Below, piece by piece: positions 28,882 to 63,976 of a DNA stretch of 64,000 bases (position 1 is the stretch's first letter; each line of letters opens with the position of its first letter). This stretch comes from Chlorobiota bacterium. Lineage in GTDB: Bacteria; Bacteroidota; Bacteroidia; Bacteroidales; JAADGE01. The DNA lies in assembly GCA_013153865.1 (NCBI GenBank), contig JAADDR010000096.1:3729-67728 (forward strand), written 5' to 3'. A program made the translations under genes and the position numbers. The notes under the pieces are model-generated. The model saw only the letters and a list, made by a program, of their open reading frames with translations. It was not told the origin of the DNA and ran no database searches.

Positions 28882-29976
28882 TTAAGATTTTTTTGAAACA
28901 TTTTTTGACTTCCCGAATTTATCTCTTATCCATCTCGGACCTATAATAACTCCGGCGGTTAAATACGGATAATAGGTAAGTAATCGCCATACAAAAGCAG
29001 TTATAACCGCTATTCCGGCAGCAGGAGGCATAAAATCTTTTAAATATTCCGAAAAAATATATTCCGAAAAACCGCTGCCTCCGGGTGTAGGACTTACCAG
29101 CATCATTACCCACATAACCAACTGTCTGGCAAATAATAAAAAATGATTACTCTTCATGGCAAAAAATGCGACAAATATTGCATTTACCACCCAATATCTC
29201 GAAGTCCAAGATATAAAAGTCGCCAATCCCGCCTTAAACCAAAAACCGAAACTCTTTTTCTTAAGCTCTTCAGAATTTTTTATAATATCCAAACCCGCTC
29301 TTCTGGCTTCTTTCCTCCAGCGTCTCAAAGGTTTTATCCCGAATATCCGTAAAACAACTTTTTTAATGATATGAGGATTTACAAACAATCCGTAACTTAT
29401 AAATAAAATATATACAAACTTTATAAGATAACCTGTTACGGCAAAATAAAAAAATTCGTTTGCAAAATTTAAACCCGAAGAATCACCTATACTGAATAAA
29501 GTATCGGCTCCGGCTATAAAAACCGCCAGAGGAAACATTATCAAAAAATACATTTCGTCCAAAAAAGATGTTGCCATAACAATTGCCGTACTTTTACCCA
29601 CACTTATACCTTCTTTATGAACAAACACCACGGCAACACTCGTACCGCCTATAGCCGAAGGAGATACGGCAGAAGCAAATTCCCACAACATAATTACCCT
29701 GAATGCTTGTCGCCATGTTACTTTATTCTCGGCTAAGATTCTAAACCGCCACATATACCCTATATCCCGAAGTGCCATAAGCAATACGGCAACAAACAAA
29801 AATAAAACGGTAATATACGAAAAACGTATTACCGAAAACGATAAATCAGAATCTTTTACCTGAAAATACAATAAACCCGCAACTCCCGAAATACCGATAA
29901 GAGCAGGTATAATAACTTTCTTGGGACTTATTTGTTTCTCAAGATTTTCTTTTTCTTTTAAATCTGCTTTAACCAT
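28882..29976 (-). CDS. Polytopic membrane protein, lysyl-phosphatidylglycerol-synthase TM-region-like (UPF0104 flippase-like)
   Basis: 364 aa with about 8 TM helices. The conserved-looking C-terminal PTPGGSGFSEY motif is typical of this family as I recall it. Confidence 0.5.
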   Translation of the reverse strand: MVKADLKEKENLEKQISPKKVIIPALIGISGVAGLLYFQVKDSDLSFSVIRFSYITVLFLFVAVLLMALRDIGYMWRFRILAENKVTWRQAFRVIMLWEFASAVSPSAIGGTSVAVVFVHKEGISVGKSTAIVMATSFLDEMYFLIMFPLAVFIAGADTLFSIGDSSGLNFANEFFYFAVTGYLIKFVYILFISYGLFVNPHIIKKVVLRIFGIKPLRRWRKEARRAGLDIIKNSEELKKKSFGFWFKAGLATFISWTSRYWVVNAIFVAFFAMKSNHFLLFARQLVMWVMMLVSPTPGGSGFSEYIFSEYLKDFMPPAAGIAVITAFVWRLLTYYPYLTAGVIIGPRWIRDKFGKSKNVSKKS

Positions 29977-31437: not shown

Positions 31438-32016
31438 ATGCTGTCCGAAAGGCAAGAACAAATAATTGAAGAATCCATAAAATTAATAGCAGATAAAGGA
31501 ATTCAAGGGTTTACGATAAAAAATTTATCAAAAGCAATAGGATTCTCCGAACCTGCCATATACAGACATTTCAACAGTAAAACCGATATAATTTCCGCAA
31601 TCTTGGAAAAATTCTTAATAATTGCGGCTTTTTTATCAAAAGAAACATCCGAATCAAACTCATCGGCTTTCGAAAAAATAGCTTTTATAATTAAACAAAT
31701 GATTAACATGTTCACGGAAACACCTTCATTGGTTCCCGTCATTTTTTCGGAAGAAATATTCAAAAACGAAACTGCACTTAAAGAAAAAATAATAACAATA
31801 CTTAATAAAGATAAAGAAACTATCGAAAGAATAATTTCGGAAGGACAAAAAAACGGAGAATTTCGAACCGACATAGACGAAAAAACTTTAACCCTTACCG
31901 TTATGGGTTCATTAAGGTTGTTGGTCAAAAAATGGGACTTGGAAAATCGAAAGTTTAATTTAAAAAAAGAAAGCGACTTATTAATTTCGGCTTTAAATAA
32001 AATATTAACGGTATAA
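31438..32016 (+). CDS. TetR/AcrR-family transcriptional regulator
   Basis: 192 aa. N-terminal HTH (GFTIKNLSKAIGFSEPAIYRHFNSK). Confidence 0.85.
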   Translation: MLSERQEQIIEESIKLIADKGIQGFTIKNLSKAIGFSEPAIYRHFNSKTDIISAILEKFLIIAAFLSKETSESNSSAFEKIAFIIKQMINMFTETPSLVPVIFSEEIFKNETALKEKIITILNKDKETIERIISEGQKNGEFRTDIDEKTLTLTVMGSLRLLVKKWDLENRKFNLKKESDLLISALNKILTV

Positions 32017-32028
32017 ATACGAAACACC

Positions 32029-32925
32029 ATGGTACAACTAAATAAACATCAACATCTTATTATATCTCTGTCGATTATATTTATATTCTCCGGACACAAA
32101 ATGTCGGCAGATACCATTCCTTCAATAAATTTAACAACCATTGCACAAGTAAATCAAGGAAACAGCTATATAACATTTCCTACTGATATAGGTAATATCG
32201 AATCTCTTTGGTTTGAAGCAAACCTGATACCGAATTTTCATATACGCACAAATAAAGATGCAAGATTAATGGGAGTTCTTACACCGCAAATGATTATAAG
32301 AATGTATCAAGAATATTCATATCCGGTAAGAACCCCGAGTTATATGCCGCAAATAACAATGTATTACAAACTCGACAAATACAATAAAAACAGCACTCTG
32401 TTTGCAAGATTGGCACACCACTCAAACGGACAAGACGGAGACTTTTACAACGAAGACGGAACAATAAATTTATTATCGGGTGATTTCTCTACAAATTGGT
32501 TCGAACTGGGGCTTATACGCACATTTTTTAACGACAGGTTCAATGCAACACAATTTTTCAGAACATCTTTAAGAAAAGATTTCTTCGAAAGTTCAAACCA
32601 AGAAAACGGAATATACAGTAAATTCAGATGGAAAAGCAGTTTCTCCATTTTTAAAATAAGAGAAAACGGAGAGCACGGAAAGAAAAAAGCGGGATTCTCT
32701 TTAAAAATGGATGCCGAAATAATGTTCGGCGACATATATACGTGGAGCAATAATGATTTTGACCGGTTAAATATCGGACTTACGGCTTTCTATACCCCGA
32801 AATTTTTTGAAGACATAGGATTTTTCATAAACTTATATCACGGACAAGACTACTACAACATATATTTTAATCATCAATTAAACGTAATCCGTTTCGGTAT
32901 TATGACCGAAGTATTAAGATTTTAA
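32029..32925 (+). CDS. Outer-membrane phospholipase A1 (OMPLA/PldA)-like beta-barrel protein
   Basis: 298 aa. LAHHSNGQDG matches the OMPLA catalytic HxSNG motif. An upstream YPVRTPSYMPQI segment and a downstream FSTNWFE segment parallel the OMPLA PFRxTNYxPE and SRSWNR regions. Confidence 0.55.
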   Translation: MVQLNKHQHLIISLSIIFIFSGHKMSADTIPSINLTTIAQVNQGNSYITFPTDIGNIESLWFEANLIPNFHIRTNKDARLMGVLTPQMIIRMYQEYSYPVRTPSYMPQITMYYKLDKYNKNSTLFARLAHHSNGQDGDFYNEDGTINLLSGDFSTNWFELGLIRTFFNDRFNATQFFRTSLRKDFFESSNQENGIYSKFRWKSSFSIFKIRENGEHGKKKAGFSLKMDAEIMFGDIYTWSNNDFDRLNIGLTAFYTPKFFEDIGFFINLYHGQDYYNIYFNHQLNVIRFGIMTEVLRF

Positions 32926-32936
32926 ATAAAGAGAAC

Positions 32937-33356
32937 ATGAAAAACATAACAATTAGTCTGCTAACAATAATATTCTCCGTTTCAATCGGTTACTCACAAA
33001 AAGCCGATGACATAACAGGAAAATATCATCTGCCGAACAAACTGGATATAGAAATATTCAAATACAAAACAACATATGCCGGCAGAATAATAGCCCTCAA
33101 CGGCTTCGAAAACGGACAAACAAAAGATATTAAAAACCCCGACGGTAAAAAAAGAAACGACCCCTTAACAGGAAAAGTAATAATAACCGGACTGAAATTT
33201 AACCCCGAAACCAAAACATGGGAAAACGGTAAAATGTACGGAGCAGAAAAAGGAATGTTTTTCAACCTGAGAATAAAAAAACTAAAAAAAGATAAAATAA
33301 CAGTAGAAGCCTCTAAATATTTCTTTAAGAAAACTATAGACTGGGAAAGAATATAA
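32937..33356 (+). CDS. DUF2147-like secreted protein
   Basis: 139 aa with a signal peptide. YAGRIIAL...DIKNPDGKKRNDPLTGKVIITGLKF...WENGKMYGAEKG resembles DUF2147. Confidence 0.55.
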   Translation: MKNITISLLTIIFSVSIGYSQKADDITGKYHLPNKLDIEIFKYKTTYAGRIIALNGFENGQTKDIKNPDGKKRNDPLTGKVIITGLKFNPETKTWENGKMYGAEKGMFFNLRIKKLKKDKITVEASKYFFKKTIDWERI

Positions 33357-33421
33357 AAATTGACACATTTTAAATTATTTACTTTAAAATATGAAAAATT
33401 TTTTGTATCGCATGTAATTTT

Positions 33422-33429
33422 TAACTTTG
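33422..33429 (+). promoter_or_regulatory. TAnnTTTG -7 box (with an upstream TTTG at 33402-33405) for the inositol/sphingolipid operon
   Basis: taactttg lies 33 nt upstream of the ATG at 33462. Confidence 0.45.
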
Positions 33430-33461
33430 TCGGTCAAAATTCGGGCAAAACAAAAAGAAAA

Positions 33462-34154
33462 ATGTCAGACAATAACCTTTGGAATAATATAAAAACAAGC
33501 GCCTATAAAGCACTGCAGCCTATTATAAACCTGCTTGTTAAAACAGGCATAACTCCCAACGGCATTACCGTTACAGGATTTATTATAACTATATTTGCAG
33601 CCGTTATTTTAATTGTGGGAGCAGAAACCGGAAAAAGAGGAGACATAAAATACATTACATGGTTCGGAATTGTTATACTCATTGCCGGACTTTTCGATAT
33701 GCTCGACGGACAATTAGCCAGAAAAACAGGCAAAATGACAAAATTCGGAGCTTTATTCGACTCCGTAATAGACCGGTACAGCGAAATGATAATGTTCTTC
33801 GGAATTGCATACTACTTAGTATCATACCATTATTTCCTTAGCGGTGTATTAGCATTTATAGCAATGATAGGATCAATTATGGTAAGCTACGTAAGAGCAC
33901 GAGCAGAAGGTCTGGGAGTAGATTGTAAAATAGGCCTGATGCAACGCCCCGAACGAATACTTACAATAGGCATCTCCGCATTATTATACGGCATTATATC
34001 ACGATTTACGGGAACATTTAAAATAGAAACTGACGTTTTCCCGTACACATTATTCGAAAACATATCAATATTTACAATACCGATTTTTATTCTGGCCGTG
34101 TTAACAAACTATACGGCTTTCCAACGTTTAAACCATTGCAGAAAAAAAATGTAA
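33462..34154 (+). CDS. CDP-alcohol phosphatidyltransferase, probable phosphatidylinositol-phosphate synthase
   Basis: DMLDGQLARKTGKMTKFGALFDSVIDRYSE matches D(x)2DG(x)2AR(x)8G(x)3D(x)3D. Directly upstream of an inositol-3-phosphate synthase gene. Start chosen at the internal Met downstream of the promoter box. Confidence 0.8.
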   Translation: MSDNNLWNNIKTSAYKALQPIINLLVKTGITPNGITVTGFIITIFAAVILIVGAETGKRGDIKYITWFGIVILIAGLFDMLDGQLARKTGKMTKFGALFDSVIDRYSEMIMFFGIAYYLVSYHYFLSGVLAFIAMIGSIMVSYVRARAEGLGVDCKIGLMQRPERILTIGISALLYGIISRFTGTFKIETDVFPYTLFENISIFTIPIFILAVLTNYTAFQRLNHCRKKM

Positions 34155-34182
34155 CTTAATTTTAAATTAAATTATCAAATAA

Positions 34183-35499
34183 ATGAACTCTAAACAAAAT
34201 ATTCAAAATCCGGAAGGAAAGTTAGGAATACTTATACCCGGTATCGGCGCAGTATCAACTACCTTTATGGCAGGCGTATTTGCCGCAAGAAAAGGAATAG
34301 CACAACCCATAGGTTCCGTTTCCCAAATGGGTAAAATAAGAATAGGAAAAAGAACGGAAGACAATAACCCCTACGTAAAAGACTTTGTGCCTTTAGCATC
34401 ATTAGACGACATGGTTTTCGGCGGATGGGACATATTCTCCGAAAACGCATACGAAGCAGCATCTAAAGCCGGAGTATTGGAAAAAGACTTGCTCAACCAA
34501 GTTAAAGACGAACTCTCGCAAATAAAACCCATGCCGGCAGTATTTAACAGAAACTTCGTTAAAAACCTCGACGGCGACCATGTCAAAAAAGAGCCGACAA
34601 AAATGGACGAAGCAAAAGCTCTTATCGAAGACATAAAAAGATTTAAAAACGAAAACAACTGCGACAGAGCAGTAATGATATGGTGTGCATCTACAGAAGT
34701 ATATACGGAAGAAACAGACATACATCAATCAGTAGAAGCATTCGAAAAAGCTCTCGAAGAAAACCACCCCTCGATAGCCCCGAGTATGATATACGCATAT
34801 GCGGCTATTAAATCGGGAATTGCTTTTGCAAACGGAGCTCCGAACCTGACAATAGACACTCCCGCATTAATAGAACTTGCCAACAGACTTAACGTTCCCA
34901 TTGCAGGAAAAGACTTTAAAACAGGACAAACTCTAATGAAAACAATTCTCGGTCCCGGATTAAAAACAAGACTTCTCGGAATCGACGGATGGTTCTCTAC
35001 AAACATACTCGGAAACAGAGACGGAAAAGTTCTGGACGATGCAGATTCATTTAAAACAAAAGAAGTATCAAAATTAAGCGTACTCGACAGTATATTAGAA
35101 CCCGAACTGTACCCGGAACTATATAAAAACATGTATCACAAAGTAAGAATAAACTATTATCCGCCTAAAGGCGACGACAAAGAAAGTTGGGACAATTTGG
35201 ATATATTCGGATGGCTCGGATACAAAATGCAAATTAAAGTAAACTTCCTTTGCAAAGACTCGATTCTTGCAGCTCCGGTAGTTCTTGACCTCGCCGTATT
35301 TATGGACTTGGCCCAACGTTCCGGAATGAAAGGAATACAAGAATGGCTCTCATTCTACTTTAAATCTCCGCAAACAAAAAAAGGTCTTAAACCGATACAC
35401 GATATTTTCTTACAAAAAATAAAATTTGAAAATACCTTAAGATATTTAATGGGAGAAACACTCATTAATCACTTAGGTTTAGATTATTACGAAGAATAA
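34183..35499 (+). CDS. ino1: myo-Inositol-1-phosphate (inositol-3-phosphate) synthase
   Basis: 438 aa. N-terminal GILIPGIGAVSTT Rossmann start, GWDIF, ANGAPN, and GKDFKTGQT...NILGNRDG, typical of bacterial/archaeal MIPS. Confidence 0.85.
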   Translation: MNSKQNIQNPEGKLGILIPGIGAVSTTFMAGVFAARKGIAQPIGSVSQMGKIRIGKRTEDNNPYVKDFVPLASLDDMVFGGWDIFSENAYEAASKAGVLEKDLLNQVKDELSQIKPMPAVFNRNFVKNLDGDHVKKEPTKMDEAKALIEDIKRFKNENNCDRAVMIWCASTEVYTEETDIHQSVEAFEKALEENHPSIAPSMIYAYAAIKSGIAFANGAPNLTIDTPALIELANRLNVPIAGKDFKTGQTLMKTILGPGLKTRLLGIDGWFSTNILGNRDGKVLDDADSFKTKEVSKLSVLDSILEPELYPELYKNMYHKVRINYYPPKGDDKESWDNLDIFGWLGYKMQIKVNFLCKDSILAAPVVLDLAVFMDLAQRSGMKGIQEWLSFYFKSPQTKKGLKPIHDIFLQKIKFENTLRYLMGETLINHLGLDYYEE

Positions 35500-35500
35500 A

Positions 35501-35977
35501 ATGAAAATTTCCGAAATAACGGCATCGGGATTAGGGACCGGGTATTCTCCGGTTGCACCCGGAACGGCTGGCTCCGTTTTGGGTATAATTCTGCTTTGGA
35601 TATTTAATCTTGGTTTACAAAAATTAAATTTTGAGCAACCGGAAATCCTTGTCCTTAATTCCGCTGTTATTTTTATCATAATATTTTCGGGAGTATGGTC
35701 AATTAAAAAAGTCCACGAAACATGGGAACACGATGCCGGAAAAATAGTAATAGACGAAATAGCGGGCGTCTGGATTGCAGCTTTTTCAGCCCCCCTCAAT
35801 CTATATTACTATATGGCGGCATTAACTCTGTTTCGCTTTTTTGATATAACAAAACCTCTGTATATCAAAAAATTCGACAATATGAAAAACAACTGGAGCG
35901 TTATGCTTGACGATATACTGGCGGGAATATACAGTTTAATTATTTTACGGATGCTCATTTATTTTGACATTTTTTAA
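35501..35977 (+). CDS. PgpA-family phosphatase (candidate phosphatidylinositol-phosphate phosphatase)
   Basis: 158 aa. GLGTGYSPVAPGTAGSV, VIDEIAGVWIA, FRFFDITKP, MLDDILAG. Starts 1 nt after the ino1 stop. Confidence 0.8.
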   Translation: MKISEITASGLGTGYSPVAPGTAGSVLGIILLWIFNLGLQKLNFEQPEILVLNSAVIFIIIFSGVWSIKKVHETWEHDAGKIVIDEIAGVWIAAFSAPLNLYYYMAALTLFRFFDITKPLYIKKFDNMKNNWSVMLDDILAGIYSLIILRMLIYFDIF

Positions 35978-36374
35978 AATGAACCGAAAAAAACAGCACC
36001 CGGTTAAAATTTTTTTAAAATACAATGTTGTGGCAGGCATTGCCACGGCGGTAGACTTTACCGTTCTTATATTTTTGACTGAAGTTGTCCATATATGGTA
36101 CCTGCTCTCGGCTACTGCAGGAGCAATCAGCGGAGGAATAACGGCATTTACGCTCGAAAGAAACTGGACTTTTATGAAAAAAGACGGAAAATTATCAGCT
36201 CAAGCAATAAAATACGCGGCAGTCTGGATTACAAGCATATTTTTAAATATAGCAGGATTATACTTACTGGTGGAATATACAAAACTACAATACATTATCT
36301 CAAAAATAATAGTAGCCGTAACAGTAGGCATAGGATTTAATTTTTTAACACACAAATATTATATTTTTAAATAG
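35964..36374 (+). CDS. GtrA-family small membrane protein
   Basis: 136 aa with 4 TM helices. VVAGIATAVDFTVLIFL...ISGGITAFTLERNWTF. Overlaps the PgpA gene by 14 nt. Confidence 0.75.
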   Translation: MTFFKMNRKKQHPVKIFLKYNVVAGIATAVDFTVLIFLTEVVHIWYLLSATAGAISGGITAFTLERNWTFMKKDGKLSAQAIKYAAVWITSIFLNIAGLYLLVEYTKLQYIISKIIVAVTVGIGFNFLTHKYYIFK

Positions 36375-36376
36375 AA

Positions 36377-38926
36377 ATGAAAAAACATCAAACAATATAC
36401 CTGTCGGCAATTATTATATCTCTGTTTTTCATTTCGATAACAAACTCTTACTCTCAAAAAACAACAAGAATAAGAGGAAAAGTGATAAATGCCGAAACCA
36501 AAGAACCGATACCGTTTGCAAATATCGTTTTCGTAGGAAAAAATATCGGAACAACCACTGACTACAAAGGAGAATACAGCCTGCAAACACAATGGGCTTC
36601 AAACAAAGTTCAAGCAGCTTACATCGGATTCAAAAGCAGCATCAAAAAAATTACAGTAGGAAAAAACCAAACAGTTAACTTCCAACTGCAACCCGAAAAC
36701 ATAAGCATCGGAGAAGTAGTAGTAAAATCAAAACGAAAAAGATACAGAAACAAAAATAATCCGGCAGTAGAACTAATAAAAAAAGTAATAAAAAACAAAG
36801 ACAATAACAGAAAAGAAAGTCTTGATTTCTACGAATACGAAAAATACGAAAAAATAGAATTCGACCTTAACAACATTACCGAAAAATTCAGAAAAAAAAG
36901 AGTATTCAAACAATACCAATTCATATTTAATTATGTTGACACATCCGAAATAAACGGAAAACCTTACCTGCCCGTATTTCTCAGAGAAACATTATCAAAA
37001 GTATATTACAGAAAATCACCAAAAGCATACAAAGAATATGTAACAGGTACAAAATCGGTAGGATCAAAAGAATACATAGACAGCGAAGGAACAGATATGA
37101 TGGTCGACTACTTATATCAAGACATAGACCTCTACAACAACGAAATAACACTCCTTACAAACCAATTCATAAGCCCTATATCATCAATAGCTCCGGTTGT
37201 TTACAAATTCAGAATAATAGACACAATTACCGTAAACAATCGCTCATGCATAAACCTTGCTTTCCAACCCAGAAACAAACTTGACTTCGCATTTATAGGC
37301 AACCTGTATATTACAAACGACGATAAATATTCGGTAATAAAAGCCGAAATGGGCATTACCGACGATATAAATCTGAACTTTGTTACGGACTTACACATTA
37401 ACCAAGAATTCGAATTTATAAACAACCAATGCTGGATGCTCACAAAAGACGAACTTATTATCGACTTTAACATCGCAAAAAAAGGAGCCGGAATGTTCGG
37501 AAAACGCTCGGTAATATACGATAATTACGTCTTTAACAAAAAACGCGACGAAAGCATATACTCCGGAATAGAAAAAACGGTAAAAGAAGAAAACTACGAC
37601 AAACGCGACGACGAATTCTGGAAACAAAACCGGCTCGAAAAATTAAGCAAACAAGAAGCCGACATATACACAATGGTGGACAGTGTTCAACACATGCCCG
37701 CATTCAAAAGAACAATGGACATCCTGACATTACTCGTGGCAGGATACTGGAATTTCGGAAAATTCAACCTCGGACCTGTAAACACATTCTACAGTTTCAA
37801 CGACGTAGAAGGATTCAGACTCAGAATAGGAGGAAGAACAAGCGAAAAATTCAGTAAACGCCTCAGACTCGAAGGATACGGACTATACGGATTTAAAGAC
37901 AAAAAATACAAATACTCCGGAAGCATAATATGGGCACTGAACAACAAACCCATAAAATCATCAACACGACACACAATATCGGCAATGTACCAAGTCGAAA
38001 CAAACTTTCCCGGCATGGAAATGCAATTCATCAACGAAGACAACTTCCTGCTGTCATTCAAAAGAGGCGTTGCAGACAAAATCCTATACTACGAAATGCT
38101 GAAAATCGAACATTACAGAGACTGGAAAAACGGATTCTCCACCACATTCAACCTCAAACACGTTACGCAAGAACCCGGAGGAACCCTCCGCTTCGACTAC
38201 GACGACAGATCATTAAGCTCCATAACAACAAGCGAAATTACCGCAGTAGTAAGATTTGCCCCAAACGAAAAATACATACAGGGATACAATTACAGAATAC
38301 CGATGTTCGGAAAATATCCCATAATACAAGTATCCTACACACAAGGACTTGAAGCACTGAGAAACGCAGACTTTACATACGGTAAACTCTCACTCAACCT
38401 CTTCAAACGAATACACCTTGCACCGCTCGGATTCACAAACTTCGAACTCGAAGCCGGAAAAATATTCGGATCCGAAATTCCCTTCCCGCTGATGTTCATC
38501 CACAGAGCAAATCAAACATATTCGTACCAGTTACATTCTTACAATATGATGAACTTTCTCGAATTTGTCAGCGACGAATACGTTTCCGTATTTGCAGAAC
38601 ACCACTTTTACGGATTTTTCTTCAACAAAATACCGCTGCTCAAAAGACTCAAATGGAGAGAAGTAATATCGGCAAAAGGAATATACGGAGGAGTTACCGA
38701 CAAAAACAACCCCGAAGTTACACCCGGATTAATGAAATTCCCGACTGACGAATACGGAAACACAACAACATACACATTAACACAAAAACCTTACATAGAA
38801 ATAAGCGCAGGTATCGAAAACATTTTCAAATTTTTCAGGGTTGACATCGTAAAAAGAGTTACATACCTGAACAACCCCAATGTTTCGGAATACGGTATCA
38901 GAGCCAGATTTAAATTTGACTTTTAA
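36377..38926 (+). CDS. Large putative outer-membrane protein: carboxypeptidase-regulatory-like N-domain plus uncharacterised C-terminal region (DUF5686-like)
   Basis: 849 aa. Signal peptide. IRGKVINAETKEPIPFANIVFVGKNIGTTTDYKGEYSL (CarboxypepD_reg-like). C-terminal ...YGIRARFKFDF has alternating hydrophobic residues and a terminal Phe (OMP beta-signal). Confidence 0.65.
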   Translation: MKKHQTIYLSAIIISLFFISITNSYSQKTTRIRGKVINAETKEPIPFANIVFVGKNIGTTTDYKGEYSLQTQWASNKVQAAYIGFKSSIKKITVGKNQTVNFQLQPENISIGEVVVKSKRKRYRNKNNPAVELIKKVIKNKDNNRKESLDFYEYEKYEKIEFDLNNITEKFRKKRVFKQYQFIFNYVDTSEINGKPYLPVFLRETLSKVYYRKSPKAYKEYVTGTKSVGSKEYIDSEGTDMMVDYLYQDIDLYNNEITLLTNQFISPISSIAPVVYKFRIIDTITVNNRSCINLAFQPRNKLDFAFIGNLYITNDDKYSVIKAEMGITDDINLNFVTDLHINQEFEFINNQCWMLTKDELIIDFNIAKKGAGMFGKRSVIYDNYVFNKKRDESIYSGIEKTVKEENYDKRDDEFWKQNRLEKLSKQEADIYTMVDSVQHMPAFKRTMDILTLLVAGYWNFGKFNLGPVNTFYSFNDVEGFRLRIGGRTSEKFSKRLRLEGYGLYGFKDKKYKYSGSIIWALNNKPIKSSTRHTISAMYQVETNFPGMEMQFINEDNFLLSFKRGVADKILYYEMLKIEHYRDWKNGFSTTFNLKHVTQEPGGTLRFDYDDRSLSSITTSEITAVVRFAPNEKYIQGYNYRIPMFGKYPIIQVSYTQGLEALRNADFTYGKLSLNLFKRIHLAPLGFTNFELEAGKIFGSEIPFPLMFIHRANQTYSYQLHSYNMMNFLEFVSDEYVSVFAEHHFYGFFFNKIPLLKRLKWREVISAKGIYGGVTDKNNPEVTPGLMKFPTDEYGNTTTYTLTQKPYIEISAGIENIFKFFRVDIVKRVTYLNNPNVSEYGIRARFKFDF

Positions 38927-38942
38927 AAAACAAAACAAAAAA

Positions 38943-40139
38943 ATGAGACATTTACAAAAAAGATTTGCAGAATACAATTTACCTCAAATAGCCATGAAAG
39001 AAGGCATATACGCCTTTTACCACGAAATAGAAACAGGACAGGATACTGTCGTAAAAATAAACGGAAAAGAAATACTCATGTTCGGATCCAACAGCTACCT
39101 CGGACTCACAAACCACCCCGAACTCATAAAAGCCGGACAAGAAACATTAAAACAATACGGAACCGGAGCATCAGGATCAAGACTGATGAACGGAAACCTC
39201 GACCTGCACGTAAAACTCGAAGAAAAACTCGCCGAATTTGTCTGCAAACCCGCAGCAACAATATTCAGTACCGGATTTCAAACAAACCTCGGAGTAATCT
39301 CAAGCGTGGCAGGAAGAAACGACTACATAATTGCTGACGAAAAAAACCACGCATCAATAATAGAAGGTACCAGACTCTCTTTCGGAACAACATATAAATA
39401 CAAACACAACGACATGAATTCTTTGGAAAAAGCACTCCGAAGAACTCAAAAAGGAAACAAAGATAAAATAGTTCTTATCGTTACCGACGGAATATTCAGT
39501 ATGGAAGGCGACATAGCAAAACTAGACGAAATAAGCAAACTCGCCGAAAAATACAACGCTTCGGTAATGGTTGACGATGCCCACGCACTCGGCGTAATAG
39601 GCAAAAACGGCGCAGGAACCGCCTCGCACTTCGGACTTACCGAAAAAACAGACCTTATAATGGGTACTTTCAGCAAATCTTTAGCATCTTTAGGCGGATT
39701 TATTGCCGGAGACAAAGATACCATAAACTATATAAAACACAATGCCAGATCACTGCTGTTCAGTGCAGGAATACCGCCCGCATCAGCGGCAACCGTGCTT
39801 AAAGCACTCGAAATTATTAAAGCCGAACCGGAAAGAATAGACAAACTGTGGGAAAACACAAACTACGCAAAAAAACGCCTCCTCGAAGAAAACTTCGACA
39901 TAGGCAACAGCACAACCCCAATAATTCCAATCTTTACCGGAGAAGACAATAAAACATTCATATACGCATCAATGCTTCTGGAAAAAGGAGTTTACGTAAA
40001 CCCGGTTGTACACCCGGCTGTCGAAAAAAACAAAGGAATACTCAGATTCTCGCTAATGGCAACACACACAAAAGAACAAATCGACAAAGCAATGGAAAAA
40101 TTAATCGAATGCAGAACAATTATCGAAAATTTTAAATAA
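38943..40139 (+). CDS. spt: Alpha-oxoamine synthase family PLP enzyme, probable serine palmitoyltransferase
   Basis: 398 aa. FGSNSYLGL, GSRLMNG, VDDAHALG, and the PLP-lysine context GTFSKSLASLGG. Start set at Met 38943; the ORF-track start at 38880 overlaps the upstream gene. Confidence 0.75.
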   Translation: MRHLQKRFAEYNLPQIAMKEGIYAFYHEIETGQDTVVKINGKEILMFGSNSYLGLTNHPELIKAGQETLKQYGTGASGSRLMNGNLDLHVKLEEKLAEFVCKPAATIFSTGFQTNLGVISSVAGRNDYIIADEKNHASIIEGTRLSFGTTYKYKHNDMNSLEKALRRTQKGNKDKIVLIVTDGIFSMEGDIAKLDEISKLAEKYNASVMVDDAHALGVIGKNGAGTASHFGLTEKTDLIMGTFSKSLASLGGFIAGDKDTINYIKHNARSLLFSAGIPPASAATVLKALEIIKAEPERIDKLWENTNYAKKRLLEENFDIGNSTTPIIPIFTGEDNKTFIYASMLLEKGVYVNPVVHPAVEKNKGILRFSLMATHTKEQIDKAMEKLIECRTIIENFK

Positions 40140-40184
40140 TATTGTATCCGACATTAAATATAAAACAACTAAAATTATCCTGAA

Positions 40185-41315
40185 ATGGAAAACATCCGAA
40201 TTAAAGAAGTAAAATCAAAATCCGATTTAAATAAATTTATTGCCTTTCCGGATAAATTATATAAAGGCAACAAATACAGAGTACCCCAATTACATTCCTT
40301 CGAACGCTCAACACTTATGAAAGAAAAAAATCCCGCTTTCGACTTTTGCGAAGCAAAATACTGGCTCGCATACAAAGACAACAAAATAGCGGGAAGAATA
40401 GCAGCAATACTTAACCCGAAATCAAACGAAATATGGAACGAAAAAAATATGCGTTTCGGATGGATTGACTTTATCGATGACTTCGAAGTATCTTCCGCAC
40501 TTATTAAAACCGTTGAAAATTGGGCGGCAGAAAAAGGAATGACCGCAGTTCACGGACCGCTCGGATTTACCGATATGGACCTCGAAGGAATGCTCGTGGA
40601 AGGATTTAACGAAACAGGTACACAAGCAACACTCTACAACTACCCGTATTACCCCCAACATCTCGAAAAACTCGGATACAAAAAAGACGTTGACTGGATA
40701 CAATTCGAAGTTAAAACACCGAAAGAAGTTCCCGAAAAAGTAAAAAAAATATCCGACCTGGTTCTGAAAAAATACAACCTCAGAATATTAGACGCTAAAA
40801 AACCAAAAGACATACTTCCGTATGCAAAAAGTATGTTTAACACACTGAACGAAGGATTTAAAGACCTGTACGGATACGTACCCCTAACCGAAAAACAAAT
40901 CGATTATTACATTAAAGCTTACTTCTCGATGATTAATACAAAATTCGTAAGTTTTATTATCGACGAAAAAGACGAAGTCGCAGCATTCGGAATTACGGTT
41001 TTATCGCTATCCGAAGCTCTGCAAAAAGCTAAAGGAAAACTTTTCCCCTTCGGATTTATACACATACTGAAAGCTCTTAACAAAAACACTAAAGTAGATA
41101 TGCTCTTACACGGCGTAAAACCCGAATATCAAAAAAAGGGAGTAATCGCAGTGGTATATAAAGAACTTATGGAAGCATACATAAACAACGGAGTAAAAAC
41201 AGCAATTACAAGCCATATCCTGGAAAACAACAAAGACTCATACCAAATGTTCAGCCCCTACGAAACAAGGCAACACTTAAGAAGACGCATTTATACAAGA
41301 CATTTAGAAGACTAA
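40185..41315 (+). CDS. GNAT-superfamily acyl-CoA N-acyltransferase (candidate bacterial ceramide synthase)
   Basis: 376 aa. C-terminal GNAT motif-A-like VKPEYQKKGVIAVVYKELMEAY. Located between the spt-like and SDR genes. Confidence 0.55.
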   Translation: MENIRIKEVKSKSDLNKFIAFPDKLYKGNKYRVPQLHSFERSTLMKEKNPAFDFCEAKYWLAYKDNKIAGRIAAILNPKSNEIWNEKNMRFGWIDFIDDFEVSSALIKTVENWAAEKGMTAVHGPLGFTDMDLEGMLVEGFNETGTQATLYNYPYYPQHLEKLGYKKDVDWIQFEVKTPKEVPEKVKKISDLVLKKYNLRILDAKKPKDILPYAKSMFNTLNEGFKDLYGYVPLTEKQIDYYIKAYFSMINTKFVSFIIDEKDEVAAFGITVLSLSEALQKAKGKLFPFGFIHILKALNKNTKVDMLLHGVKPEYQKKGVIAVVYKELMEAYINNGVKTAITSHILENNKDSYQMFSPYETRQHLRRRIYTRHLED

Positions 41316-41316
41316 A

Positions 41317-42309
41317 GTGAAAAAAATTTTAATTACCGGAGCAAGCGGATTCATAGGAGGATTTCTTGTAAAAGAAGCACTCGACAGAAAATACGAAACA
41401 TATGCGGGAATAAGAAAATCCGGCAGCAGAAAAAATTTATCCGACGACAAAATTAAACTTTTCATATATAAACTGTACGACAAAGAAGACTTAAAACAAA
41501 AAATAAACAAATTCGGAAAATTCGATTACGTAATACACAATGCCGGATTAACAAAATCCTGCGATAAAAAAGCATTCGAAGAAGTCAATTTCAATTACAC
41601 AAAAAACCTTATCGAAGCTCTTATCGAAACAAACAACATACCCGAAAAATTTATATACATAAGCAGCTTGGATGCCTTCGGTCCGGGAAACGAAAAAACA
41701 ATGCAACCGATAAAAATAACCGATACCCCAAAACCTCAAACACTCTACGGAAAAAGCAAACTCAAAGCCGAACAATACATAATCTCTTTACCCGAACTTA
41801 AAAGCATCATAATAAGACCTACCGGAGTTTACGGACCCGGAGAAAAAGATTACCTTCTCGCTTACAAAAGTATTAAAAACGGTCTGGAAACATATATAGG
41901 AACAACCGAACAAGCAATATCTTTTATTTACGTTAAAGATTTGGCAAGACTTATCTTTGACGCTCTCGAATCAAACATATACGGAAAAGCATATTTCGTT
42001 TCCGACTTTAAAAATTACACAACAAAAATATTTAACGAAACTGTAAAAAAATATCTTAACAAAAAAACCGTTAAAATTATATTCCCGAAAAGCATAATAA
42101 AAATTATATCTTTCATAACAGAAAACATATCATGCTTATTCGGAAAACCCGCCACCTTAAACACCGAAAAATTTAAAATAATAAGTGCTCGCAACTGGCT
42201 GTGCGACAGCACCGACACGGCAAAAGATTTCGGTTTTAAACCGGAATACGACCTCGAAAAAGGCATTAAAGAAACCTTAGATCGGTGTAAAAAAGAAAAA
42301 TTATTGTAA
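41317..42309 (+). CDS. NAD-dependent epimerase/dehydratase-family reductase (candidate ceramide/3-keto reductase)
   Basis: 330 aa with a GTG start 1 nt after the upstream stop. ILITGASGFIGG Rossmann motif and catalytic YGKSK. Confidence 0.7.
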   Translation: MKKILITGASGFIGGFLVKEALDRKYETYAGIRKSGSRKNLSDDKIKLFIYKLYDKEDLKQKINKFGKFDYVIHNAGLTKSCDKKAFEEVNFNYTKNLIEALIETNNIPEKFIYISSLDAFGPGNEKTMQPIKITDTPKPQTLYGKSKLKAEQYIISLPELKSIIIRPTGVYGPGEKDYLLAYKSIKNGLETYIGTTEQAISFIYVKDLARLIFDALESNIYGKAYFVSDFKNYTTKIFNETVKKYLNKKTVKIIFPKSIIKIISFITENISCLFGKPATLNTEKFKIISARNWLCDSTDTAKDFGFKPEYDLEKGIKETLDRCKKEKLL

Positions 42310-42330
42310 ACATTCTGAAACTAAATCTAA

Positions 42331-42864
42331 ATGCAAAAAATTTTAATCCTATTGACGGCGCTAAGCGCTTATACCCCGGCTTTTTCCCAACCGGCAGACT
42401 ATCCGGTTCCGCCGCAAACACAAAACAGATTATTTTACATACAACGTAATCTCAATAAAAACACAATTATTTATGACGTAAATTTTGATAAAAACGGAAA
42501 TATACGTAAAGACGACCCCGTGGACGTATATTGGATAAGATACGAAGAAAAAGGACAACGCATGGAATTAAGGGCTATAGAAAGAAGATTCGCTTTCGGC
42601 GAAAAATGCATACCCCTTAAATCAAACCCCGAATATTACCGGCTCAAAATTGCAGCAACAGACAAAAAAGAACTCTTACTTAAACAAACAGCTCCTTTTA
42701 AAGCCGTAGTTTACATGAAAATAAACGGAAAATACTCAAAACTTGTTCATCTTTACATCTTTGCCGACACTTCTAAATTTTGGCCCGACGTAAAATACAT
42801 AGAAATTTTCGGTAAAGACATAAAAACAGGTAAACCGACTTACGAAAAAATGATTGACCCGTAA
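42331..42864 (+). CDS. Small secreted protein of unknown function (DUF4833-like)
   Basis: 177 aa. Signal peptide MQKILILLTALSAYTPAFSQ. No catalytic motif recognised. Confidence 0.6.
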   Translation: MQKILILLTALSAYTPAFSQPADYPVPPQTQNRLFYIQRNLNKNTIIYDVNFDKNGNIRKDDPVDVYWIRYEEKGQRMELRAIERRFAFGEKCIPLKSNPEYYRLKIAATDKKELLLKQTAPFKAVVYMKINGKYSKLVHLYIFADTSKFWPDVKYIEIFGKDIKTGKPTYEKMIDP

Positions 42865-42880
42865 AATAAAATTACAACCG

Positions 42881-43798
42881 ATGTCTTTTAAAAGATTTAC
42901 GAAAAAAAATATAATCACTAATATCATTCTGGCAATTACATATGTTTTATGGAACATTTTTGTCGGAGGATTAAGAAGCGAACACGTATTCCTGATTGTT
43001 TTGTGGTTCGTAATGTTTTACGCAACGGAAAAAACGCGCAAATTCATTCTCGGATTTTCAATATTCATAATATATTGGATTATCTACGACTCAATGCGCA
43101 TATTACCGAATTATAAAGTATCGCAAGCACATATAAGACAACCCTACGAATACGAAAAATCACTGTTCGGTATAGCAGACGGCAACACATTACTTACGCC
43201 TAACGAATATTTTGCCCTATACCACAAACCCTTTTTAGACTTACTCTCCGGACTCTTTTATATAAACTGGGTACCTGTTCCTTTAGCATTCGGAGTATAT
43301 CTGTATTTCAAAGATAAGTATATTTTTACCAAATTCTCATTGGTATTTTTGCTTGTAAACATATTCGGGTTTATAATATATTACATATATCCCGCAGCTC
43401 CGCCCTGGTATGTGCAACTTTACGGTTTCGACCTGCATATCGGTGTTCCCGGAAACAGAGCCGGACTTGCACGCTTCGATAACCTTATAGGCATTCCGGT
43501 ATTCAAAAACATATATAACAAAAACGCAAACGTATTAGCGGCAATGCCTTCGCTGCATGCAACTTATCCGCTTATAGTACTGTTCTACGGAATTAAAAAA
43601 GGTCTGAAAAAAATAAATATAATATTTGCAATATTCATGTTAGGAATATGGTTCTCCGCAGTATATTCTTCTCATCATTATATCATAGACCTTATTGCGG
43701 GAGTCGTCCTTGCTCTTATCGTTATACTCCTTTTCGAAAAAATCTCCGAAAAACCTTTCTTTAACAAGAAAATACAATCTTTTATAAAACAAATTTAA
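42881..43798 (+). CDS. PAP2-superfamily membrane protein, AUR1-like inositol-phosphoceramide synthase candidate
   Basis: AMPSLHATYP and SSHHYIIDLIAG match the PAP2 C2/C3 motifs in the form seen in AUR1-type IPC synthases. About 6 TM helices. Start chosen at Met 42881, after the upstream stop. Confidence 0.7.
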   Translation: MSFKRFTKKNIITNIILAITYVLWNIFVGGLRSEHVFLIVLWFVMFYATEKTRKFILGFSIFIIYWIIYDSMRILPNYKVSQAHIRQPYEYEKSLFGIADGNTLLTPNEYFALYHKPFLDLLSGLFYINWVPVPLAFGVYLYFKDKYIFTKFSLVFLLVNIFGFIIYYIYPAAPPWYVQLYGFDLHIGVPGNRAGLARFDNLIGIPVFKNIYNKNANVLAAMPSLHATYPLIVLFYGIKKGLKKINIIFAIFMLGIWFSAVYSSHHYIIDLIAGVVLALIVILLFEKISEKPFFNKKIQSFIKQI

Positions 43799-43826
43799 CA
43801 AACCGTATTAATTAAAATTAAACAAT

Positions 43827-44408
43827 ATGAAATATCCGAAATTTTTTGACGACATTGAACACATAGTTCTTAAAGACGAATTAAGCGAATTTCTCGGAAG
43901 TACCGAAGGCGGAATAATAGACATCTCATACCTCGAAATAGTAAAAATGGCGGGGCACAGTTGCGGAGTAGTCAGCGGTGCATACCTCGCAGCCCTTTAC
44001 GGACTTAAAAAACTCTACAAATCCGAACTGCCGCAAAGAGGTAAAATAAAAGTAGAACTTAAAGGAACTCTCGAAGATAATACCGGTGTTACGGCACTCG
44101 TACTTTCCAACATTACCGGAGCCACAACCGATATGGGCTTTTTAGGAGTGCAAGGAAAATTTAACCGCAGAAATCTTTTGTTTTTCGGAGCAGATATTAA
44201 CGCCGACATAAAATTTACGCGCATCGATACGGGCGAAAGCACAGAAGTTAATTACACGCCCCAAAAAGTAGTAGTTCCCAAAAAAGTGCTAATGACAGCC
44301 ATAGGTCCGGACGCAACCGAAGAAGACAAAAAAACATTCCCCGAACGTTGGCAAAAAATGGTCCAAACAATATTTGAGAATGCCGATAAAGTAATAGAAG
44401 TAAAATAA
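43827..44408 (+). CDS. Hypothetical protein, FmdE-N-domain-like
   Basis: 193 aa. KMAGHSCGVVSGAYLAALYG loosely resembles the FmdE HGHxCPGxxxG motif. Last gene before the operon terminator. Confidence 0.45.
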   Translation: MKYPKFFDDIEHIVLKDELSEFLGSTEGGIIDISYLEIVKMAGHSCGVVSGAYLAALYGLKKLYKSELPQRGKIKVELKGTLEDNTGVTALVLSNITGATTDMGFLGVQGKFNRRNLLFFGADINADIKFTRIDTGESTEVNYTPQKVVVPKKVLMTAIGPDATEEDKKTFPERWQKMVQTIFENADKVIEVK

Positions 44409-47500: not shown

Positions 47501-47603
47501 AAAATATCTCGCCTTTAAGATTATTCGGGATACTGCTTTGAGCCGCACCCCGAATTTTATTTGTCTTTTCATTCTTAAATAATCTCGACATATTTTTTCG
47601 CAA
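44598..47603 (-). CDS. FAD-binding oxidase fused to 4Fe-4S and CCG domains (YdiJ-like D-2-hydroxyacid dehydrogenase)
   Basis: 1001 aa. RGAGTSLAGQ (FAD_binding_4), CLSCKACKSECPSGVD ferredoxin motif, C-terminal CCGMAGSFG cysteine-rich domain. Confidence 0.85.
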   Translation of the reverse strand: MRKNMSRLFKNEKTNKIRGAAQSSIPNNLKGEIFSDKTHRTIYSTDASAYKEEPFAVAFPKDTEDIKKIIAFVNNRRVSSGNTPGVKDFMSIIPRGAGTSLAGQVTGKGIIVDVSRYINKILQLDAENKLVTVQPGVILTDLNNYLKSYGLFFGPETSSANRCTIGGMTGNNACGLHSVIYGSTRDYIHSIKAILSDGSEVVFGELDRKEFYEKLKLKTLEGKIYRKIYEILSDKEIQKETEKQYPDKEIPRRNTGYALDLLLDCDVFTESENKFNFCKLLAGSEGTLAFITEITLKTVNLPPKEKALVIPHFDKLEDAFYANLIALKYSPGAVELTDKSILDLTKKTKGLEKNRFFIEGEPEAILMIEFARETKEEILRIAEDMENEMRDAGYGYHFSVVWDDDIKKVWDLRRAGLGVLSNMPGDARPVSLVEDTAVRVDKLPAYISEFRQILKKYKLDCVYHAHIATGELHLRPVLNLKNKKDAELFKTVAYETAKLVKKFGGSLSGEHGDGRLRGEFIPLMYGEKIYNVFKEIKFVFDPENIFNPGKIIDTPPMNEFLRYTPGRETKEIETIFDFSEEGGYLRSAEKCNGSGDCIRTVAAGGTMCPSYRASRDERNSTRARANMLREVITNESEPFENKDLYNILDLCLSCKACKSECPSGVDVAKLKAEFLQHYYDKNGIPFRTRLIANITKINRLLSVAPAISNFFLSSKLFYVPVMKIIGFSVETKIPLLSKKTLKKQFRKLQKTNYKRKVYFFADEFTDYNDADIGIKAIKLLNTLGYEVVIPDISESGRTYISKGLLRKAKRIAQKNIAVLKDLISDETPLLGIEPSTILTFRDEYPDFFKDKKEKETVLKLSDNCLMIDEFLASEMRSGNIKKTSFTKDEKHVKLHGHCRQKAVASTDATKFILSFPENYTVEEIPSGCCGMAGSFGYEKEHYELSMKIGELTLLPAIRASKKDVLIAAPGTSCRCRINNETDKDALHPVDILANALKDEIV

Positions 47604-63902: not shown

Positions 63903-63976
63903 GGGGCATTAACTCAGTTGGCTAGAGTGTCACACTGGCAGTGTGGAAGTCATCGGTTCAAGTCCGATATGCTCCA
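63903..63976 (+). tRNA. tRNA-Ala (GGC)
   Basis: Cloverleaf: acceptor GGGGCAT/ATGCTCC with the G3:U70 alanine identity pair, anticodon arm TCACA-CTGGCAG-TGTGG (anticodon GGC), T arm ATCGG-TTCAAGT-CCGAT, discriminator A. No encoded CCA. Confidence 0.9.

Follow-up and report, generated by a model that had tools for sequence, protein, structure and literature searches.

What would a large outer-membrane protein do in the midst of genes for making inositol sphingolipids? The question is raised by a 64,000-nucleotide stretch of DNA from a Chlorobiota bacterium (contig JAADDR010000096.1 of assembly GCA_013153865.1; hereafter the window, meaning the whole stretch), in which a gene for an 849-residue protein lies between inositol-lipid genes and ceramide genes. 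A first-pass annotation had read this protein as an outer-membrane barrel and suggested that it delivers, inserts or exposes inositol sphingolipid at the outer membrane or in vesicles. Profile matches identify it as a bona fide member of the DUF5686 family with a bona fide SusC-type N-terminal extension (NTE). The architecture and outer-membrane location of the protein, as modelled below, are very probably right, and a real functional tie of its subfamily to the lipid pathway is probable.

The tie is seen in the gene neighbourhoods of its relatives. The window subfamily was represented by the best 80 of at least 586 matches in species-representative genomes (loci are given L numbers), which are not a random sample; many of the loci analysed here are contigs of metagenome-assembled genomes (MAGs) with uncertain taxonomy. 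The encoded proteins share 42-86% identity with the window protein and sample the Bacteroidales, Cytophagales, Sphingobacteriales, Chitinophagales, Saprospirales and Flavobacteriales. Linkage was scored as pathway genes at a distance of ≤10 kb, and loci with ≥8 kb on both flanks were taken as well-flanked. At least one sphingolipid or inositol-lipid gene was found in 56 of the 80 loci and in 34 of the 49 well-flanked ones, with at least three such genes in 32/49. These genes lie on the same strand as the DUF5686 gene, the sole exception being a gene for a GNAT-like protein, which two loci carry on the opposite strand. Directly adjacent to DUF5686 are the gene of phosphatidylinositol-phosphate (PIP) synthase (35 loci) and that of the membrane protein GtrA (27 loci). 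The triad of serine palmitoyltransferase (SPT), GNAT-like protein and short-chain dehydrogenase/reductase (SDR) is kept in 30/80 loci. The commonest co-neighbour encodes a DUF4833 protein (47/80 loci, directly adjacent in 8).

The linkage persists through rearrangement. DUF5686 is retained in at least seven truly different gene orders, for example SPT-CerS?-CerR?-MIPS-PgpA-GtrA-DUF5686-PIPS-DUF4833-FAhydroxylase-PAP2 (CerS? and CerR?, putative ceramide synthase and ceramide reductase; MIPS, myo-inositol phosphate synthase; PIPS, PIP synthase; FA, fatty acid) or DUF5686-PIPS-PAP2-MIPS-PgpA-GtrA, and in a ceramide-only order that contains no inositol genes, SPT-CerS?-CerR?-DUF5686-DUF4833. It is also found across three head-group chemistries, namely the pathway of the Bacteroides thetaiotaomicron type (BT-like), the non-homologous 'alternative' pathway and a variant with a PfkB kinase. 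In the alternative pathway (L009, L010), genes for an NTP-transferase, a CDP-alcohol transferase, a HAD protein and MIPS are followed by DUF4833-DUF5686. In the Dyadobacter/Runella variant, the PfkB kinase stands instead of MIPS and the ceramide triad lies immediately upstream of DUF5686. DUF4833, GtrA and a protein of the LPG_synthase_TM family, whose gene lies inside alternative-type clusters (L045, L010 and others), likewise follow the pathway regardless of the head-group enzymes. Because DUF5686 follows the pathway whichever head-group enzymes are present, it is unlikely to be one of them and may rather serve a product or problem common to all. Linkage to the sphingolipid core is at least as strong as linkage to inositol. 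The inositol and ceramide setting reported by the first-pass annotation is thus no local accident, since it recurs in many Bacteroidota orders, through rearrangements and head-group replacement; the linkage on which its inositol emphasis drew is real, and the emphasis itself has to be relaxed in view of the ceramide-only clusters.

The PfkB variant has further features of its own. At L045:12584-20841 (also L046, L050, L051, L071 and L040; Dyadobacter, Runella and Pedobacter), SPT-GNAT-SDR-DUF5686 come first and MIPS is absent. Genes for an NTP-transferase, a 289-aa protein, a CDP-alcohol transferase, an LPG_synthase_TM protein, a HAD protein and a PfkB kinase follow, and the cluster continues with DUF4833, FA hydroxylase and methyltransferases. 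This content points to another phospho-polyol, or a phospho-sugar, as the head group of the sphingolipid. A gene of the FA-hydroxylase family, absent from the window, is present in 23/80 loci (for example L063:13917-14543); in many Sphingobacteriales and Chitinophagales clusters it is inserted between DUF4833 and the PAP2-type phospho-inositol dihydroceramide (PI-DHC) synthase.

Twenty-four of the 80 loci are unlinked, and re-scoring them with the alternative-pathway genes rescued none (0/24). An ancient paralogue was considered as the explanation and rejected, for on the tree these loci form small lineage-specific clades among the linked ones. The unlinked loci tend to adjoin other lipid-related genes. 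In Cytophagales of the Arcicella/Spirosoma type (L011:12719-21806; also L017, L019, L022 and L026), DUF5686 is found without sphingolipid neighbours and is followed by an operon for an Epimerase_2-like protein, a CMP-sugar cytidylyltransferase, a split transketolase, a class-III aminotransferase, an SDR, a HAD protein, NeuB and a fatty-acid hydroxylase. In a Muribaculaceae MAG (L081:12616-13677, the same as L059), a gene for a glycerophosphodiester phosphodiesterase (GDPD) begins 72 nt after DUF5686 on the same strand, and there is no biosynthetic cluster.

The gene in the window and the parts of its product are as follows.

36377..38926, plus strand: DUF5686-family gene, 849 aa (open reading frame (ORF) with ATG start; Pfam DUF5686)
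36377..36454, plus strand: signal peptide, residues 1-26, predicted cleavage SYS|Q, no lipobox (sequence reading)
36470..36688, plus strand: NTE, a CarboxypepD_reg-type beta-sandwich, residues 32-104 (Pfam PF13715; SusC/RagA homology)
36707..36724, plus strand: Ton-box-like motif IGEVVV, residues 111-116 (alignment to SusC-type Ton boxes)
36746..37741, plus strand: middle domain, residues ~124-455, presumed periplasmic (DSSP and pLDDT of the model)
37748..38923, plus strand: C-terminal barrel of ~16 strands, residues ~458-849, Omp85-like (DSSP; Foldseek)
38474..38581, plus strand: conserved loop HRANQTYSYQ...NMMNFLEF, residues ~700-735, between predicted strands 11 and 12
38894..38923, plus strand: beta-signal-like motif GIRARFKFDF (conservation over 79 and 140 sequences)

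The coordinates bear out the reading frame and junctions given in the first-pass annotation. The GtrA gene stops with TAG at 36372-36374 and the ATG of DUF5686 at 36377 follows after 2 nt; the DUF5686 gene stops with TAA at 38924-38926, 16 nt before spt if the ATG at 38943 is taken as the spt start. The longest spt ORF, from 38880, would share 47 nt with the 3' end of the DUF5686 gene; the start at 38943 is favoured because SPT homology begins only at residue 23 of that ORF. The window protein is identical to database protein P0001. The DUF5686 profile (PF18939) matches residues 134-770 with 210.1 bits (cut-off 39.2) and an E-value of 7.6e-62 over profile positions 2-655 of 669, and it matches all of 48 diverse relatives (48/48) as well. 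Full-length homologues number in the thousands, and the family comprises 11,105 sequence clusters at E≤1e-3; the ORF and its features are not products of chance. As the first-pass annotation had noted, there is no recognisable catalytic motif: Pfam finds no catalytic family in the window protein, and none in the 48 members even at E≤1.

The N-terminal region is of the kind found in SusC-type transporters. The signal peptide reads MKKHQT-IYLSAIIISLFFISI-TNSYS|Q. The first 45 aa contain a hydrophobic stretch of ≥10 residues in 168 of 219 relatives; an [AS]Q motif is present in 194, the two together in 150, and a lipobox-like motif in only 4. CarbopepD_reg_2 (PF13715) matches residues 32-116 over the whole profile (positions 1-88 of 88, E 2e-19), and the model of the NTE is confident (pLDDT about 90). 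Against the SusC/RagA model TIGR04056, the NTE aligns with positions 3-102 of 981 at 53.8 bits (cut-off 368). A profile of the family searched against the PDB gives N-terminal matches to the SusC homologues 8aa4_A (9e-18) and 9gbc_A and to RagA (6sli_B). The motif IGEVVV stands 7 residues past the last NTE strand, inside a linker (residues 110-123) with pLDDT<50, and aligns with LNEVVV of the TonB-linked receptor 9gbc_A and LEQVVV of RagA. Over 288 members of both subfamilies (the second is described below), the family motif is L-x-E-V-V-[IV] (L218, E212, V222, V142/T53, I141/V139), and the flanking columns are variable. The SusC NTE is a periplasmic domain of unknown function with the Ton box directly after it; in Bt1763, the Ton box VDEVVV directly follows the NTE and its deletion abolishes function (PMC7782687). 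Relative to the NTE, IGEVVV is placed just as this proven Ton box is. By homology, then, the N-terminal module is a SusC/RagA-type NTE followed by a Ton-box-like motif, putatively for TonB docking. The signal peptide and carboxypeptidase-regulatory-like beta-sandwich of the first-pass annotation were correctly read; their SusC type and the Ton-box-like motif had escaped it.

The remainder of the protein was modelled at full length with AlphaFold2 (AF2) on 52 homologues (mean pLDDT 73.8, pTM 0.51). The middle domain (~320 residues) is composed of a conserved NPA motif with a helix, ten long antiparallel strands and C-terminal helices. Across relatives of 31-61% identity, E204, P267, D282, P298 and G308 are invariant and Y276, N332, N334 and R419 near-invariant; no Ser, His or Cys is invariant, and no Pfam or PDB relative of the domain was found by sequence. 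A separate AF2 model of the middle domain only, on a 15-sequence alignment, was discarded (pLDDT 39). DSSP indicates a possible POTRA-like beta-alpha-alpha-beta-beta element at 401-466, at low confidence (pLDDT <50 at 441-458).

The C-terminal region was modelled as a barrel of ~16 strands, which answers the structure prediction called for in the first-pass annotation. In a Foldseek search of the PDB, all top 50 matches are barrels of the Omp85 superfamily (Sam50, TamA, BamA and Toc75), with E-values down to 2e-8, probability 1.00 and target-normalised TM scores of ≤0.62 (barrel-only BamA chains); no porin, TonB-dependent transporter (TBDT) or LptD is among them. A larger, LptD-like barrel that would include the middle-domain strands was considered and is unsupported, as no LptD is found among the structural matches. 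The loop HRANQTYSYQ...NMMNFLEF is the most conserved stretch of the family, with R710-Q713, N723-E729 and D733 (near-)invariant, and a seed pattern taken from it, N[LM]MN[FYW][LMF]EF, retrieved the family in both the genome and the metagenome collections. In the model, it would occupy the L6 position of Omp85 proteins. The C-terminal motif G-[IVL]-R-x-x-hydrophobic-x-hydrophobic-x-F ends in Phe in 76/79 subfamily members and 123/140 family representatives, in agreement with the beta-signal noted earlier. A DUF5686 member of Tannerella forsythia is listed as outer membrane in a proteomics table of outer-membrane vesicles (OMVs). Collectively, the predicted order is signal peptide, NTE, Ton-box-like segment, middle domain and ~16-strand Omp85-like barrel, in a protein that is not a lipoprotein. 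The outer-membrane barrel of the first-pass annotation is thus upheld by the model and the T. forsythia entry, and is made more specific as an Omp85-like one.

A second subfamily, to which none of the loci sampled so far belongs, was found by clustering 150 family representatives with the 79 locus proteins. Its 80 metagenomic loci, the best 80 of at least 462 matches and again not a random sample, encode proteins with 35-41% identity to the window protein. The arrangement is KdsD - TatC - AhpD-like - DUF5686 - LptB. Where enough sequence is available, lptB, an LPS-export ATPase gene, directly follows DUF5686 on the same strand (53/65 loci), often only a few bases away, and tatC lies upstream in 40/69; the same lptB arrangement is present in one 5.9-Mb genome. 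DUF4833 is absent from the 80 loci scored. Named members of this subfamily are Flavobacteriales, so the two subfamilies may be orthologues that belong to different orders, and not paralogues. In both conserved contexts, the neighbouring genes have to do with envelope lipids bound for the outer membrane. Examples of the arrangement are L116:7669-13162 and L162:5729-11233, with PssA, PorV2 and PorU2 nearby.

The side of the membrane on which the DUF4833 protein works can be predicted from gene fusions. In 14 loci of several families, a single ORF of 424-444 aa encodes a fusion of PIP synthase with DUF4833 (L056:12535-13830; also L030, L035, L041, L042, L057, L061, L063, L066, L070, L075, L076, L077 and L078). 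In the fusion, DUF4833 is joined to the C-terminus of PIP synthase via an extra hydrophobic segment, which corresponds to the signal peptide of the stand-alone protein. The C-terminus of CDP-alcohol phosphotransferases is cytoplasmic, so with the extra segment DUF4833 would come to lie on the periplasmic side of the inner membrane, beside the enzyme; DUF4833 is thus predicted to face the periplasm. No PDB relative of DUF4833 was found in the profile search, and no literature on it was found. The LPG_synthase_TM protein may be a flippase of the inner membrane. Deletion of the GtrA gene BT_1524, which neighbours the DUF5686-type gene, left total lipids unchanged, and this fits a post-synthetic role of the accessory genes.

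Tentatively, we propose that DUF5686 takes part in envelope-lipid trafficking once synthesis is complete, at the step that concerns the outer membrane: finished sphingolipid would reach it from the periplasmic side and be inserted, flipped or exposed in that membrane. Its probable partners would be the GtrA-like and LPG_synthase_TM-like proteins as candidate inner-membrane flippases and DUF4833 as the periplasmic partner, and energy could possibly be drawn from TonB-ExbBD via the Ton box. The Flavobacteriales relatives beside lptB and kdsD suggest that the general business of the family is envelope glycolipid export, of which the window subfamily would be the sphingolipid-dedicated version, here for phospho-inositol sphingolipids. 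That DUF5686 proteins are lipid translocases of the outer membrane, Omp85-like, energised by TonB and of a class not recognised before, is in our estimate unlikely.

Bacteria have no known flippase or transporter for sphingolipids (PMC11087976), and how these lipids pass out of the inner membrane into the outer membrane and OMVs is recognised as a gap in knowledge. DUF5686, DUF4833, GtrA and the LPG_synthase_TM protein form a genetically tractable candidate set for this missing step. Were DUF5686 proteins such TonB-energised translocases, sphingolipid-producing Bacteroidota would have a dedicated trans-envelope export route for phospho-inositol and related sphingolipids, from GtrA- or LPG_synthase_TM-type flippases through DUF4833 to DUF5686 and on to the surface and vesicles; the lptB-adjacent orthologues of Flavobacteriales would serve some other envelope glycolipid in a similar way. 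The sphingolipids and inositol lipids of Bacteroides are important in host signalling, both immune and metabolic, and in gut fitness (PMC9246714). An Omp85-like barrel with a SusC-type TonB-docking module would be a new mode of energy coupling between the inner membrane and an Omp85-type machine; no precedent for an architecture of NTE, Ton box and Omp85-like barrel was found in the searchable literature. The lptB/kdsD linkage also hints that this DUF of more than 11,000 clusters works in envelope glycolipid biogenesis phylum-wide.

Several observations weigh against this proposal. The lipid-handling function is one that we infer, and all Omp85 proteins characterised so far act on polypeptides and not on lipids (PMC11116518). 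The Omp85 relationship is drawn from a single medium-confidence model (pTM 0.51): the Omp85/Bac_surface_Ag, POTRA and ShlB profiles give no match in 48 diverse members at E≤1, sequence matches in the PDB profile search are confined to the N-terminal domain, and the loop at the L6 position does not contain the VRG[YF] motif. Because of the missing profile link, 'Omp85-like' is a structural statement about a predicted model; with the L6 motif also absent and the barrel seen only in the model, filing the protein as a member of the Omp85 family is unwarranted. The Ton-box-like motif is no proof of TonB dependence, and no conserved tonB or exbBD neighbours were found at the loci of either subfamily. 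The middle domain, the likeliest site of a lipid-binding groove, is the domain whose separate model reached a pLDDT of only 39. As to linkage, 15/49 well-flanked loci of the window subfamily (~30%) have no pathway genes, and inositol, sphingolipid and alternative-pathway genes were found in 0/80 subfamily-2 loci, whose neighbours are lptB, tatC and kdsD instead. The first-pass annotation had suggested a role with these lipids for the DUF5686-like family; the family as a whole is not an inositol-sphingolipid family. Unlinked loci in both subfamilies mean that the protein is not restricted to the clusters of sphingolipid producers, and the possible orthology of the two subfamilies weakens the idea of a specialised version.

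The main rival of the proposed lipid trafficking is the handling of polypeptides, as in characterised Omp85 proteins. The protein would then be a translocase or insertase that exports a partner to the cell surface or anchors it there, with DUF4833 as the obvious candidate, or assembles a specific outer-membrane protein required during production of these lipids. The modelled barrel is Omp85-like, all Omp85 proteins studied act on polypeptides, and subfamily 2 adjoins tatC, a protein-export gene. DUF4833 moreover carries a signal peptide, is the most frequent neighbour (47/80, adjacent in 8) and lies immediately upstream of DUF5686 in alternative-type clusters; but it is fused to an integral inner-membrane enzyme in 14 loci, where it can be no secreted passenger, and subfamily 2 does without it. 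POTRA domains are also missing by sequence from the 48 members, and no conserved TpsA-like or autotransporter-like substrate gene lies near the loci. We consider polypeptide handling improbable. Alternatively, DUF5686 may be a general envelope housekeeping protein whose presence in the operon reflects co-regulation of envelope genes or inherited synteny. Such a role would suit a very large, phylum-wide family (11,105 clusters at the above threshold), the unlinked loci (~30% of well-flanked subfamily loci and 80/80 in subfamily 2) and their interspersion among linked ones on the tree. However, the linkage persists through at least seven gene orders and a non-homologous replacement of head-group enzymes, which goes beyond what inherited synteny alone predicts. 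DUF5686 is also always on the same strand, with gaps of few nucleotides to its neighbours, and its unlinked relatives adjoin other envelope-lipid genes (lptB/kdsD, GDPD and the NeuB/CMP-sugar/FA-hydroxylase operon); a mere housekeeping role is therefore quite unlikely.

A different reading of the NTE and Ton-box module, which is common to the SusC/RagA importers, is that DUF5686 is a TonB-dependent importer of inositol or a sphingoid precursor, or a retrograde lipid transporter that keeps outer-membrane asymmetry. T. forsythia does incorporate exogenous myo-inositol into inositol sphingolipids (PMC4587543), but B. thetaiotaomicron cannot rescue inositol deficiency from the medium (Heaver et al., PMC9246714) and the clusters encode de novo synthesis (MIPS and SPT). 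The protein has neither a plug domain nor the 22-strand barrel of a TBDT, and no conserved gene for a SusD-like lipoprotein or a periplasmic binding protein adjoins it. Oar is a TonB-dependent exporter (PMC6434023), and this precedent means that the direction of transport cannot be read from a Ton box; import is, in our judgement, distinctly improbable. The last possibility is a lipid-modifying enzyme of the outer membrane, with a catalytic middle domain, for example for an acyl-, phospho- or glycosyl-modification of the sphingolipid, anchored by a barrel as in PlpD, PagP and PagL. Its attractions are the invariant E204 and D282 and near-invariant Y276, N332, N334 and R419, the precedent of PlpD, an Omp85-type barrel fused to a lipase, and the loose grouping of the gene among 'putative enzymes' by Heaver et al. 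(PMC9246714). Yet no catalytic family or motif appears in the 48 members at E≤1, no Ser, His or Cys is invariant, and the gene is found with head groups of different chemistry, an argument against an enzyme specific to one head group. We regard an enzymatic function as highly improbable.

In the window itself, the DUF5686 gene has the following neighbours.

28882..29976, minus strand: LPG_synthase_TM flippase-like membrane protein, BT_1521-type (Pfam PF03706, 7e-25)
31438-32016, plus strand: TetR regulator with a YsiA-like (acyl-CoA-responsive type) C-terminal domain (Pfam)
32029-32925, plus strand: 298-aa protein with a hydrophobic N-terminus (no Pfam/NCBIfam match)
32937-33356, plus strand: DUF2147 protein (Pfam)
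33360-34154, plus strand: PIP synthase, BT_1523-type (NF052561 PIPSynBT1523, 1.8e-93, 312 bits, cut-off 350)
34183-35499, plus strand: MIPS (profile match 2e-105)
35501-35977, plus strand: PgpA-type phosphatase (profile match 3e-41)
35964-36374, plus strand: GtrA-like membrane protein (profile match 9e-21)
38943-40139, plus strand: SPT (NF047600 SerpalmtaseCFB, 615 bits, cut-off 640)
40185-41315, plus strand: GNAT-like protein, 376 aa, putative bCerS type (Acetyltransf_1)
41317-42309, plus strand: epimerase-family SDR, putative CerR type (Epimerase)
42331-42864, plus strand: DUF4833 secreted protein (PF16117, 4.7e-39)
42854-43798, plus strand: PAP2-type PI-DHC synthase, BT_1522-type (PAP2_3; NF052609, 1.6e-100, 336 bits, cut-off 480)
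43827-44408, plus strand: 193-aa protein (no Pfam/NCBIfam match)
44598-47603, minus strand: FAD-linked oxidase, 1001 aa, with 4Fe-4S dicluster domains (oriented towards the end of the cluster)
2594-2665, minus strand: tRNA gene (Rfam)
63903-63976, plus strand: tRNA gene (Rfam)

The genes from 31438 to 44408 form a same-strand array with intergenic gaps of -14 to +45 nt (-14 to 28 nt in the upstream inositol module). MIPS, PIP synthase, the PgpA-type PIP phosphatase and PI-DHC synthase are all encoded on this strand, by which the array classes as a BT-like cluster. NF052561 and NF052609 score below their equivalog cut-offs but are the best models, so the family assignment is clear. The phospho-inositol dihydroceramide route has been defined in B. 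thetaiotaomicron (PMC9246714), and a Spt/bCerS/CerR ceramide pathway, with a ceramide synthase of GNAT fold and a ceramide reductase of the NDUFA9/epimerase family, has been described in bacteria (PMC11087976, PMC10865984). The array is a complete route of the former kind joined to a triad of the Spt/bCerS/CerR type, in which the GNAT-like protein and the SDR are putative orthologues of bCerS and CerR by domain family and conserved synteny. Co-transcription of the array is likely, as no convincing intergenic plus-strand terminator was found in the scan of the array and the sigma-70 promoter scan gave sites at chance level (40 against 41.1 expected). No riboswitch or other regulatory RNA was found near the cluster, the two tRNAs being the only Rfam matches in the window. 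The LPG_synthase_TM gene (MprF-flippase-like) lies upstream of the cluster in divergent orientation. A TetR-family gene likewise precedes the cluster in 17 related loci. Of the 80 loci, only L001 and L029, the two closest relatives, contain the 298-aa ORF, and the 193-aa ORF was found in none (0/80).

With the Omp85 superfamily (BamA, TamA/TamL, Sam50, Toc75, FhaC and PlpD), the protein would share, according to the model, a C-terminal barrel of ~16 strands and ~390 residues, together with a long conserved loop between strands 11 and 12 and periplasmic N-terminal domains. It differs in having neither VRG[YF] nor similarity to the Omp85, POTRA or ShlB hidden Markov models, in an N-terminus of NTE, Ton box and a ~320-residue beta-rich domain in place of POTRA repeats, and in the genetic coupling of DUF5686 to lipid synthesis genes. 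TamL of Bacteroidota is a lipoprotein, whereas the window protein is not. Within the superfamily, TamA-TamB has been discussed as a possible phospholipid conduit (literature cited in PMC12045153). Compared with two-partner secretion (TpsB/FhaC), there is no adjacent gene for a large TpsA-type exoprotein, and the neighbours encode lipid enzymes and small proteins that are secreted or membrane-bound. SusC/RagA TBDTs have homologous counterparts of the signal peptide, NTE (PF13715) and Ton-box segment in the same order; in contrast, the sequence after the Ton box is unrelated to TBDTs, Plug (PF07715) and TonB_dep_Rec (PF00593) match neither the window protein nor the 48 members, and there is no SusD-like partner gene. 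Oar of Myxococcus is an example of an NTE-bearing TonB-dependent barrel that serves export.

Like LptD/LptE of the Lpt system, DUF5686 is an outer-membrane barrel, in the model, linked to an envelope glycolipid pathway, and in subfamily 2 it is encoded directly upstream of lptB and near kdsD. In the Escherichia coli cluster kdsD-kdsC-lptC-lptA-lptB, lptC and lptA occupy the corresponding place upstream of lptB. LptD differs in its 26 strands and N-terminal beta-jellyroll (OstA), it is not among the top 50 structural matches, and the OstA/LptD profiles match neither the window protein nor the 48 members.

The closest precedent is the report of Heaver et al. 2022 (PMC9246714), in which a BT_1527 homologue is noted in one sentence as lying beside MIPS in both BT-like and alternative clusters, with no fold, function or knockout given, and a BT_1521 homologue is described as common to both cluster types. 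BT_1527 was otherwise found in the literature only in the preprint of that study, and DUF5686 only in the single proteomics table entry. The function is accordingly undescribed, as the first-pass annotation had held, in that none had been assigned before, although the neighbourhood had already been noted. BT_1527 would belong to DUF5686 judging from annotation wording, not from sequence comparison, and no Bacteroides-named protein is among the 120 matches listed from a search with a Muribaculaceae member. The two are nevertheless alike in their annotation as carboxypeptidase-regulatory-like domain proteins and in their position next to MIPS, and both contexts of Heaver et al. are reproduced here independently, the BT-like cluster in the window and the alternative one in L009 and L010.

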